This document shows positions 5,856-7,699 of a stretch of 64,000 nt of DNA, in pieces; position 1 is the first letter of the stretch, and every line of letters starts with the position of its first letter. The position numbers and the translations under genes are program-made. This DNA comes from Chloroflexota bacterium. GTDB lineage: Bacteria > Chloroflexota > Dehalococcoidia > Bin125. The notes below the pieces were generated by a model. It saw only the letters and a list, made by a program, of their open reading frames with translations, made no database searches and was not told the DNA's origin. The stretch covers positions 17,601-81,600 of the forward strand of contig VXQZ01000011.1 of NCBI GenBank assembly GCA_009838735.1, read 5' to 3'.

Positions 5856-6149
5856 ATGAGACAGTGGCCGCCGGCCATGCAACTCATGGGCATCGGCTGG
5901 TACGTGGCTACGTGCATCGTGCTGGGCGTTGTCGGTGGAGTCCTGCTGGACGACGAGTTGGGCACGGGATTCGCGCTCACGCTCGTCGGACTCGCTCTCG
6001 GTTTGGCTACGGCCGGCTGGGGCGGGTATCGCATGTTGCAAGATCTATTCGCCGCTCAAGCGCGGCAACGACAAGACCAGGCAGAGCGGCGCCCTCCCTC
6101 CGAAGACGCGCCCGTGGACGATGAACAGGACGAGGAGGAGCGCGCGTGA
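5856..6149 (+). CDS. atpZ: AtpZ/AtpI-like small membrane protein of ATP synthase operon
   Basis: ~97 aa, two TM helices (GIGWYVATCIVLGVVGGVLL, GFALTLVGLALGLATAGWGGY), immediately upstream of atpB with overlapping stop/start; acidic tail. Confidence 0.6.
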   Translation: MRQWPPAMQLMGIGWYVATCIVLGVVGGVLLDDELGTGFALTLVGLALGLATAGWGGYRMLQDLFAAQARQRQDQAERRPPSEDAPVDDEQDEEERA

Positions 6150-7699
6150 GCCGAAGACGCCTGATCATCTTCGCCACACTCGCCTTCGCGGTCTTCGGTT
6201 TCTTCGTTGTCCGCGCACCTGCGCCGGTCATCGCCCTGGCGGCGGAGCCGGTGATCTCGATCGGTTCCTACGAAATCACCAACACGATCCTTTCGGCCTG
6301 GGTCGTGATCTTGCTGCTGGCCATTGCGGCGTTCGTCGTCTGGCGGCGGACGCGGGACGTTGAGACCGCGCTGGTTCCGTCAGGTTTCCAGAATCTGGTT
6401 GAGGCGATTTACGAGGCGTTCCTGGGCATCTCGCAACAGGTCGGCGGCGAGCGCAACGGCAAGAAGTTCTTCCCCTTCGTCTTCACGATCTTCATCTTCC
6501 TGCTGATCGGCAACTGGTTCGCGCTCTTCCCCTGGAACAACGTGATCGGTCCGGTCGAGAACTACCGCTACCACTATCTGCACGAGATGGAGGTCTCGGT
6601 GATGGAGGTGGTCGAGGACCTTGAGGAAGGTGCGCGCAGCCTGTCCGACGGCGAGATCGACGCAATCAACGACGCGTTCGGAAACGCCTTCTTCGAACCG
6701 ATCCCGTTCAAGGTCGACAAGCAGGACAAGTCGGACGAGATCATCCACAAGATTCGCAAGCATCATTTGACCGACACCGAGTTCGCCGTCCGCAGCGAGT
6801 TCTGGACCAACCCGATTCCGTACGGCACTGACGGCGCAGACCTGGTTCACGAAATCGAGTCGCGGCTGGAGGCGGCCGGGATTGTCGACGAGGGCCACCA
6901 CGAGCTGGAATACGCGATGGTCTTCAACCTGCCTATCGTGGCCGGCGACGCCGAGTTGGTCAAAGCAACCGGGCCGATCCTTTCCGGCGACGGTTTCAAG
7001 ATCATCCCGCCCCGCACGTTGTTCGCCGAGACGCGGGACTTCTCCTATGACGCGTTTGCCGAGCCGCTGGTGATCGAGCCGGGCGCTGACGGCAGCGTCG
7101 CGCAGCTTTGCCTGATCGAGTGCGAAATCGCAATTGGCGACTTCGAGCCGGCGGTCGTGCCGACCACGGTCAACACAGCGCACCTGGGCTTCATCCTGAG
7201 AATGGAAGAGAAGGGCTACGTCGACGAGGCAACCGGTGAAACCACCGGTACCGTCGGCCACATCTTCCCCATCTTCCGAGCCCTGGCTTCCGATGTGAAC
7301 CTGCCCCTGGCGCTCGCACTCTGGTCGTTCCTCGCGGTGCAGTACTTCGGCATGCGCGGGGTCGGGATCGGCGCGAACTTCGGCAAGTACATCGGCGTTG
7401 GCTCGCACGCGATTGTCAAGGGGCCGATGGGGGTGTTCGTCGGAATCCTGGAGATCGTCTCGGAGGTCGGACGCGTGATCTCGTTCACCTTCCGTCTGTT
7501 TGGCAACATCTTTGCCGGTGAAGTGGTGCTGTTTATCTCGATGTTCCTGGTCGCCTTTGTGGTGCCGACGGTGTTCTTCGGACTAGAAGTGTTCGTCGGC
7601 TTCATCCAGGCGTTCGTCTTCGCCATGCTGACGCTCGTGTTCGCTTCGACCGCTGTCGGCGACCACGACGAGCACCATGACGAGGCGGCAGAACACTAG
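6146..7699 (+). CDS. atpB: F0F1 ATP synthase subunit a, atypically long (517 aa) with ~230-aa acidic loop insertion
   Basis: N-terminal TM helices ending [12 protein letters not shown]-terminal region with [13 protein letters not shown] and conserved [10 protein letters not shown] arginine motif of subunit a; GTG start overlaps atpZ stop; large hydrophilic insert between the two conserved halves. Confidence 0.85.

Follow-up and report, generated by a model that had tools for sequence, protein, structure and literature searches.

The F-type ATP synthase a-subunit encoded in a stretch of Dehalococcoidia DNA carries an additional acidic domain of about 27 kDa in the linker between its helices aH3 and aH4, and homology with the Chloroflexus aurantiacus enzyme strongly supports a location of this domain on the outer (periplasmic, P-side) face of the membrane, at the mouth of the proton inlet. 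The stretch, called the window below, comprises 64,000 nucleotides (nt) from a Chloroflexota bacterium (Dehalococcoidia; Bin125), at positions 17,601-81,600 of the forward strand of contig VXQZ01000011.1 in assembly GCA_009838735.1, and the gene in question, atpB, is an open reading frame (ORF) with a GTG start that encodes 517 amino acids (aa). The domain is clade-wide, is attached to a true a-subunit, and is undescribed in the open-access literature searched, where the lineage-specific additions to subunit a that came up are short loops only. It is very probable that the protein has an acidic, folded, outer-face domain at this site, and the fuller reading, in which the domain also serves as a proton antenna for the inlet, is given a probability of roughly 0.35. 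The gene and its parts are the following (window coordinates, all on the + strand).

6146..7699 (+), atpB, F-type ATP synthase a-subunit including the insert, 517 aa
6146..6541 (+), N-terminal membrane core, aa 1-132 (aH1-aH3), aligning with C. aurantiacus a residues 6-135
6542..7261 (+), inserted domain, aa 133-372, placed on the outer face by alignment, net charge -31, isoelectric point (pI) 4.39, without a match in sequence or fold searches
6563..6928 (+), helical insert subdomain, aa 140-261, predicted to form six helices, net charge -18, 8 His
6929..7213 (+), beta subdomain of the insert and VNTAHxG helix, aa 262-356, the beta part corresponding to the shorter inserts seen in relatives
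7262..7657 (+), C-terminal membrane core, aa 373-504 (aH4-aH6), including the essential Arg450 (nt 7493-7495), Asn454, Glu459 and Glu481
7658..7696 (+), cytoplasmic His/Asp/Glu-rich C-terminal tail, aa 505-517, with a 12-nt tandem duplication at 7662-7684

Apart from the insert, the protein has the features of a working a-subunit. The Pfam model PF00119 (ATP-synt_A) matches it in two separated stretches with 136.9 bits (the gathering cut-off being 33.9), and solved a-subunits align with aa ~3-137 and ~367-511 only, the best solved relative being the C. aurantiacus a-subunit (PDB 9itj, E=1.8e-40). Among 89 homologues R450, N454, E459 and E481 are invariant, as are N123, W124, P129 and N132 of the N-terminal core, and the former four align with C. 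aurantiacus R249, N253, E258 and E280, residues that line both half-channels. An earlier reading of the letters alone (the sequence-only reading) had described both conserved halves as intact, which agrees with the PF00119 match and the invariant channel residues, and all the motifs it quoted are present, namely the end of the N-terminal half (aa 120-130), PLALALWSF (aa 387-395), the essential-arginine motif (aa 450-459) and the tail (aa 505-517). Since the channel residues are invariant and the c-subunit shares its FTEA motif with the c-subunit of Chloroflexus, which translocates protons, the motor should be a normal proton motor, and it is strongly supported that the atpB product is a functional a-subunit and serves an F1Fo ATP synthase driven by protons as its stator and proton channel. 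The N-ATPase, or alternate F1Fo, type (TIGR03306) was considered and rejected, given a score of 80.1 bits against a cut-off of 302.1 and the presence of a delta subunit. All 14 NCBIfam subunit-A models match below their own cut-offs (for example, TIGR01131 with 97.4 against 102.6 and NF004481 with 130.3 against 227), because the insert splits the match and not because the core has diverged. Some homologues are deposited as 'hypothetical protein', among them MYB23151.1, MYI05140.1 and MYD16398.1.

The insert (240 aa) contains 47 Asp and Glu against 16 Lys and Arg, together with 10 His, and has no hydrophobic segment; its two cysteines, C322 and C326, are the sole Cys residues of the protein. 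Its position was established as the aH3-aH4 linker by alignment with the solved C. aurantiacus a-subunit, and the topology was taken from this alignment, since the membrane core of the full-length structural model is only moderately confident. The a-subunit of C. aurantiacus possesses a "unique insertion" (His142-Thr172) in the same linker, which lies on the periplasmic surface, is partly disordered and is stapled by Cys135-Cys173, and the proton inlet half-channel of that enzyme begins at His170/Asp171 of the linker (PMC12002316). An insert at this site should therefore face outward and lie at the inlet mouth, and the distribution of charge fits such a topology, with an N-terminus starting MSRRR against the strongly negative insert. 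The sequence-only reading had placed a continuous acidic domain between the conserved halves, in the loop after a TM2-like helix, and both points hold, the loop corresponding to the aH3-aH4 linker. About 4 residues occupy this site in the mycobacterial a-subunit and about 44 in that of C. aurantiacus; nothing comparable to the insert was found there in the solved bacterial ATP synthases matched in this analysis.

A folded extra domain, as had also been proposed, is backed by confident AlphaFold2 models. In the full-length model the insert is the most confident part, with a predicted local distance difference test score (pLDDT) of 88-94 against 60-70 for the membrane core, and the insert modelled by itself reaches a pLDDT of 87.2 and a predicted template modelling score (pTM) of 0.86. 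A neck is predicted in which a beta strand at aa 133-139 pairs with a strand at aa 369-373, joining both ends above aH3 and aH4, and the predicted order of the remaining elements is six helices (aa 140-261), a beta sheet (aa 273-323) and the helix that bears VNTAHxG (aa 342-355). The insert is predicted to be an autonomously folding, compact alpha+beta domain. Pfam gave no match for the window insert at E<=10 and none that was consistent over 29 homologues, a profile search of all PDB sequences with the insert gave 0 matches at E<=1, and the best E-values from Foldseek with the insert model were 1.7 (PDB) and 0.17 (the viral folds of BFVD), the template modelling scores (TM-scores) being poor. 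A phmmer search of the insert against 1.84 billion representatives returned 13 matches. One of them, P0127, a protein rich in Asn and Thr and repetitive in sequence, was judged spurious as a homologue outside the a-subunits, and the others are all a-subunits or fragments of them. A profile search for insert homologues returned a-subunit fragments only, its candidate pre-filter having evidently skipped the full-length forms. The full-length model finds the Chloroflexus a-subunit in PDB, with TM-scores that are poor because of the only moderate confidence of its membrane core. On these searches and models the domain is a candidate new fold.

The long form of the subunit is neither rare nor restricted to fragmentary assemblies. 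A search of 5.8 billion proteins recovered more than 100 protein clusters of 500-600 aa, with full-length coverage and identity down to 44%, many of them on megabase contigs, and a scan with one genome per species found the insert in at least 24 species-level Dehalococcoidia/Chloroflexota metagenome-assembled genomes (MAGs), which include closed long-read chromosomes and several sponge-derived bins; L001 is 99% identical. The start position is identical among the homologues of the 24 genomes, with ATG as start codon in two of them and an N-terminus reading MSR(R/T)RL, and in the window a Shine-Dalgarno-like element, GAGGAGGAG, lies at 6132-6140, 5 nt 5' of the GTG, which overlaps the TGA stop of the upstream AtpZ-like gene as GTGA. 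From their sequences, a restriction of the insert to the a-subunits of one Dehalococcoidia-related clade is strongly supported. As to whether the insert is universal in its lineage and already characterised, the first part applies to this clade, while no characterisation was found in the open-access literature searched.

Against this background it is very improbable that the insert is an artefact or a selfish element (chimera, frameshift fusion, intein or mobile insertion) or a functionless, neutral loop expansion. Some observations could be read that way, since GC content is slightly lower (0.59-0.60) across 6250-6850 than in the flanks and several split or truncated a-subunit ORFs are present in databases. 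No frameshift or stop splits the ORF of the window, and an assembly error or frameshift fusion was rejected because the same uninterrupted ORF recurs in the 24 genomes and in more than 100 clusters, long-read closed chromosomes included. The ratio of nonsynonymous to synonymous substitution rates (dN/dS, Nei-Gojobori) is 0.04-0.29 for the insert, as is typical of a host domain, and 0.08-0.23 and 0.02-0.15 for the N-terminal membrane part and the C-terminal core, respectively, the insert thus resembling the former and exceeding the latter, which is very constrained, so that purifying selection on the insert is strongly supported, and the confident predicted fold likewise argues against neutral expansion. 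An intein or mobile insertion was rejected too, as no intein, Hint, endonuclease or transposase domain was found at Pfam E<=10 and the junctions N132|V133 and H372|I373 are without the Cys/Ser/Thr and His-Asn signatures of inteins; no tandem repeats were found within the insert. As far as sequence can tell, artefact explanations are excluded. The truncated or split entries of the long a-subunit (P0084, P0107, P0121 and P0131-P0138, with P0107 fused to AtpZ) probably reflect contig ends or assembly frameshift errors and not biology.

The linker appears to have grown in steps from shorter inserts. Relatives with a-subunits of 370-417 aa carry acidic inserts of ~100 aa at the same site, and in profile-profile comparison (hhalign) these match the beta subdomain of the long insert with a probability of 94% and E=1.4e-7, a score to which the shared flank contributes part; no counterpart of the helical subdomain was aligned in the ~100-aa inserts. 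The loci L025 (short insert) and L026 (a distant long form) have the same operon order, with a HAD hydrolase gene between those for gamma and beta, and a full-length delta, and this shared, unusual order indicates that the short- and long-insert lineages are related. Linker lengths form a series of about 4 (mycobacteria), about 44 (Chloroflexus), about 100, about 240 and about 320 aa. The ~100-aa inserts of P0109-P0120 have a conserved EHVxHEAEEHPD directly after aH3, on the outer face, which has no conserved equivalent in the long form.

Among known enzymes, that of Chloroflexus aurantiacus (PDB 9itj and related; Zhang et al. 2025, PMC12002316) is the closest comparison, coming from the same phylum and sharing the additional segment at the same linker site, the channel residues, the His/Asp/Glu-rich C-terminus and a very similar c-subunit. 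Its insertion has 31 aa, is partly disordered and is disulfide-stapled, whereas the insert in the window has ~240 aa and is predicted to be folded, with a beta neck instead of the staple; the Cys135-Cys173 staple is not present, V137 being aligned with Cys135. Two a-subunits and two stalks are present in the Chloroflexus enzyme, an arrangement that the shortened N-terminal domain of its delta (157 aa) is proposed to permit (PMC12002316). The window delta (179 aa) aligns over residues 7-176 with the 178-aa delta of Bacillus PS3, the 157-aa Chloroflexus delta matches only its aa 90-176, and the deltas of L025 and L026 have 181-183 aa. With the staple cysteines absent and delta full length, a Chloroflexus-type disulfide and two-stalk, two-a design (a2 b4 delta2) is not supported. 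The c-subunit of the window has about 8 more N-terminal (outer-face) residues than C. aurantiacus c, and c-subunits of the clade (82-87 aa) in general have an outer-face N-terminal extension of 9-14 residues that the latter lacks. The c-subunit genes lie at 7789-8037 (+) in the window, 8257-8520 in L025 and 8695-8955 in L026, and MDLLLQIGD is kept between the window and L026; this extension may be related to the outer-face domain of the stator. The Acinetobacter baumannii a-subunit (PDB 7p2y) likewise has a lineage-specific loop segment as a distinctive structural feature, but that segment, of 12 hydrophobic residues, falls between aH4 and aH5 on the side where protons exit and does not amount to a domain (PMC8849298).

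What the long inserts have in common is, above all, their charge. All 79 of 79 have a net charge between -21 and -45 and a pI of 4.05-4.67, and the acidity holds at ~32% insert identity. The mean charge per residue is -0.139, against -0.033 +/- 0.054 for the other long ORFs of the window. Only ~10 of the ~46 acidic residues per insert fall in columns with at least 80% Asp or Glu, so that the acidity, judged from the alignment, is conserved but mostly compositional. The number of His per long insert ranges from 1 to 19 and that of Cys is 0, 2 or 4 (79 homologues), with no insert Cys, and hence no C322/C326 pair, in 34 of the 79, and such variability is evidence against a fixed metal site or an essential disulfide. 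By comparison with these, R141, R216, R240, N261, F299, N343, T344 and H346 are nearly invariant, non-acidic insert residues, H346 is the only conserved insert His, and VNTAHxG is the most conserved motif, its N343, T344, H346 and G348 being at least 90% conserved. Two variations were observed among relatives: P0060 and P0066 (595-601 aa) have an additional Ala/Glu-rich repeat of ~85 aa (AAERSEAARERSE) after the equivalent of the helix at aa ~230-243, and P0027-P0033 and P0068 have an additional segment of ~21 aa near the insert start with two Cys (VVCELQGE…VVCEGS), which brings the total to four per insert.

In the favoured reading of these properties the insert, with its ~47 carboxylates, would present an extensive polyanionic surface of permanent charge above the inlet. 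This surface could act as a proton-collecting and proton-retaining antenna or as a local buffer, and protons would thereby reach the inlet channel faster in seawater, which is slightly alkaline and well buffered, and at low proton-motive force. On this view the insert would scale up what has been proposed for E. coli Fo as a periplasmic funnel or 'proton antenna', a concept that is reportedly due to Yanagisawa and Frasch (2021). In E. coli a funnel of carboxylate and imidazole groups at the inlet has been proposed to speed proton delivery (PMC9447477). The likeness consists of a carboxylate surface on the outer face that leads to the inlet channel, but the E. coli funnel is built of short a loops and the b N-terminus, in contrast to the whole domain described here, and the two are a functional analogy only. 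The antenna is favoured because of the position of the insert, its charge kept by selection, the apparently marine or sponge habitat and the E. coli proposal, and by this analogy it is put forward tentatively, as a possibility that may well turn out otherwise.

Several points weigh against an antenna. A conserved 27-kDa fold with R141, R216, R240, N261, D298-F299 and VNTAHxG exceeds what a cloud of charge needs, and such invariant motifs hint at a specific interaction. The exported proteins of marine bacteria are frequently acidic anyway, and the His content of the insert varies, as given above. An orientation of the acidic surface toward the inlet is no more than presumed, and all members of the clade are uncultured MAGs, with function inferred from sequence and models.

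The same invariant residues in a compact fold would suit a docking or scaffold domain, which would hold the enzyme in place in the membrane, or stabilise it there, by binding a specific partner. Candidates are peptidoglycan or the S-layer in the cell envelope, a respiratory complex, another ATP synthase alongside (oligomerisation), and the outer-face N-termini of the c-ring and the b subunits. Such a role is somewhat unlikely in itself, yet nearly as likely as the antenna. The conserved c-subunit extension, absent in C. aurantiacus, would offer a contact, the MreB and MurA-like genes nearby suggest that a wall to dock to may exist, and the Ala/Glu-rich repeat of some relatives, probably coiled-coil-like, would fit a module that reaches out or interacts. 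Weighed against this, no binding domain could be recognised in the insert, for which Pfam, PDB and fold searches gave no match, the operons of the window, L017, L025 and L026 have no conserved additional gene for a partner, and the most conserved global property is charge, with no particular patch identified.

The location directly at the inlet, the ~47 titratable carboxylates, the His present in many members and the predicted neck-and-domain geometry, which would permit movement, are also compatible with a regulatory lid or sensor. Responding to divalent cations or to the pH outside, it would either gate the inlet half-channel or cover the c-ring on its outer face, and in this way limit the waste caused by proton leak or reverse pumping when energy is scarce. 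This is considered improbable, as the epsilon subunit has a normal C-terminal inhibitory helix domain and the sequences indicate no switch; the C322/C326 pair, too, is missing from many homologues. We also know of no precedent for P-side regulation of bacterial F-ATPases.

The sequence-only reading had further raised a regulatory role, a periplasmic or cell-wall anchor and an ion- or metal-binding module, and had singled out the His-rich C-terminal tail. In the tail (aa 505-517) H507 is invariant and H510 and H517 are conserved among the 89 homologues, and the tandem duplication noted above (ACCACGACGAGC x1.9) produced its part HDEHHDE. Similar tails end the a-subunits of C. aurantiacus (...GHDEEH..) and mycobacteria (...EEHH or ...HEDH), so that the tail is, by sequence comparison, a family trait of these lineages and not a novelty of atpB. 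A module in which insert and tail bind metal or other ions together could draw on the 10 His and 47 Asp/Glu of the window insert, on the EHVxHEAEEHPD conserved in the short inserts of relatives, and on two cases elsewhere: the P. aeruginosa a-subunit has a C-terminal His/Asp metal site (PMC12796488), and a His-rich ATP6 tail from an ice-worm raised ATP synthase activity in E. coli, as summarised in PMC12796488, which cites PMC12035521. These proteins share with the window protein a His/Asp/Glu-rich C-terminus on the proton-exit side; their tail sequences differ, and the metal site and the activity effect are theirs, the present case resting on sequence. A metal module is quite unlikely, because the His and Cys of long inserts are so variable, with H346 alone conserved, and because the tail is cytoplasmic and the insert lies across the membrane from it, on the outer face, so that the two cannot make up a joint site.

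The operon around atpB is complete, in the order atpZ-a-c-b-delta-alpha-gamma-[HAD hydrolase]-beta-epsilon, and comprises the following further genes.

5829..6149 (+), AtpZ/AtpI-like small membrane protein (PF09527), Pfam E=9e-10, with the same gene before subunit a in L025 and L026
7789..8037 (+), atpE, c-subunit, 82 aa, with the proton-type FTEA carboxylate motif
8138..8638 (+), atpF, b-subunit, a single b gene
8648..9187 (+), atpH, delta-subunit, 179 aa, full length and not of the shortened Chloroflexus type
9210..14251 (+), atpA, atpG, a HAD-IA hydrolase gene (11663-12340), atpD and atpC, in the same order in L017, L025 and L026

The hydrolase gene between atpG and atpD (window 11663-12340, +) belongs to the HAD-IA/beta-phosphoglucomutase family and occupies the equivalent position at 11128-11796 in L017, 12513-13235 in L025 and 12647-13360 in L026, being kept in both short- and long-insert relatives. 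Directly 5' of atpZ lies a gene with a bifunctional-nuclease domain (PF02577; 5191-5721, +), whose position is taken by an ORF of similar size in L017 and by one called a BFN_dom gene in L026. Directly 3' of the operon are an EPSP-synthase-family gene (14290-15585, +) and a MreB gene (15622-16668, +). The EPSP-synthase-family protein is one that we take to be MurA-like from its motif, GGDVIGARP, which has Asp at the position of the fosfomycin-target Cys of E. coli MurA. Together with MreB this suggests a walled, rod-shaped cell, a reading that contrasts with the peptidoglycan loss reported for many marine Dehalococcoidia (PMC10284905).

In the usual description, the F-type ATP synthase of bacteria is a minimal machine that has hardly any mass on the outer side of the membrane. 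A conserved, folded 27-kDa domain at the proton entrance would offer a natural experiment on the much-debated question whether, under a low proton-motive force and at alkaline pH, ATP synthesis is limited or tuned by proton antennae and the local charge of the surface. In practice, the insert keeps these proteins under the NCBI family cut-offs, and some carry the annotation 'hypothetical' as a result. In marine and sponge microbiomes the clade is abundant, and the domain may bear on the energy conservation of these slow-growing heterotrophs. Chloroflexota is also, to our knowledge, the phylum of the only known two-a-subunit ATP synthase. It is doubtful, though conceivable, that this enzyme is the first of the bacterial F-type ATP synthases to have a folded domain of unseen fold on the extracytoplasmic side of its stator, and that this domain either changes proton access to the motor, as an antenna or proton capacitor that lowers the threshold of usable proton-motive force, or physically couples the enzyme to an outer-face partner; if so, it would represent a new design principle, reached by stepwise growth of a loop within Chloroflexota.

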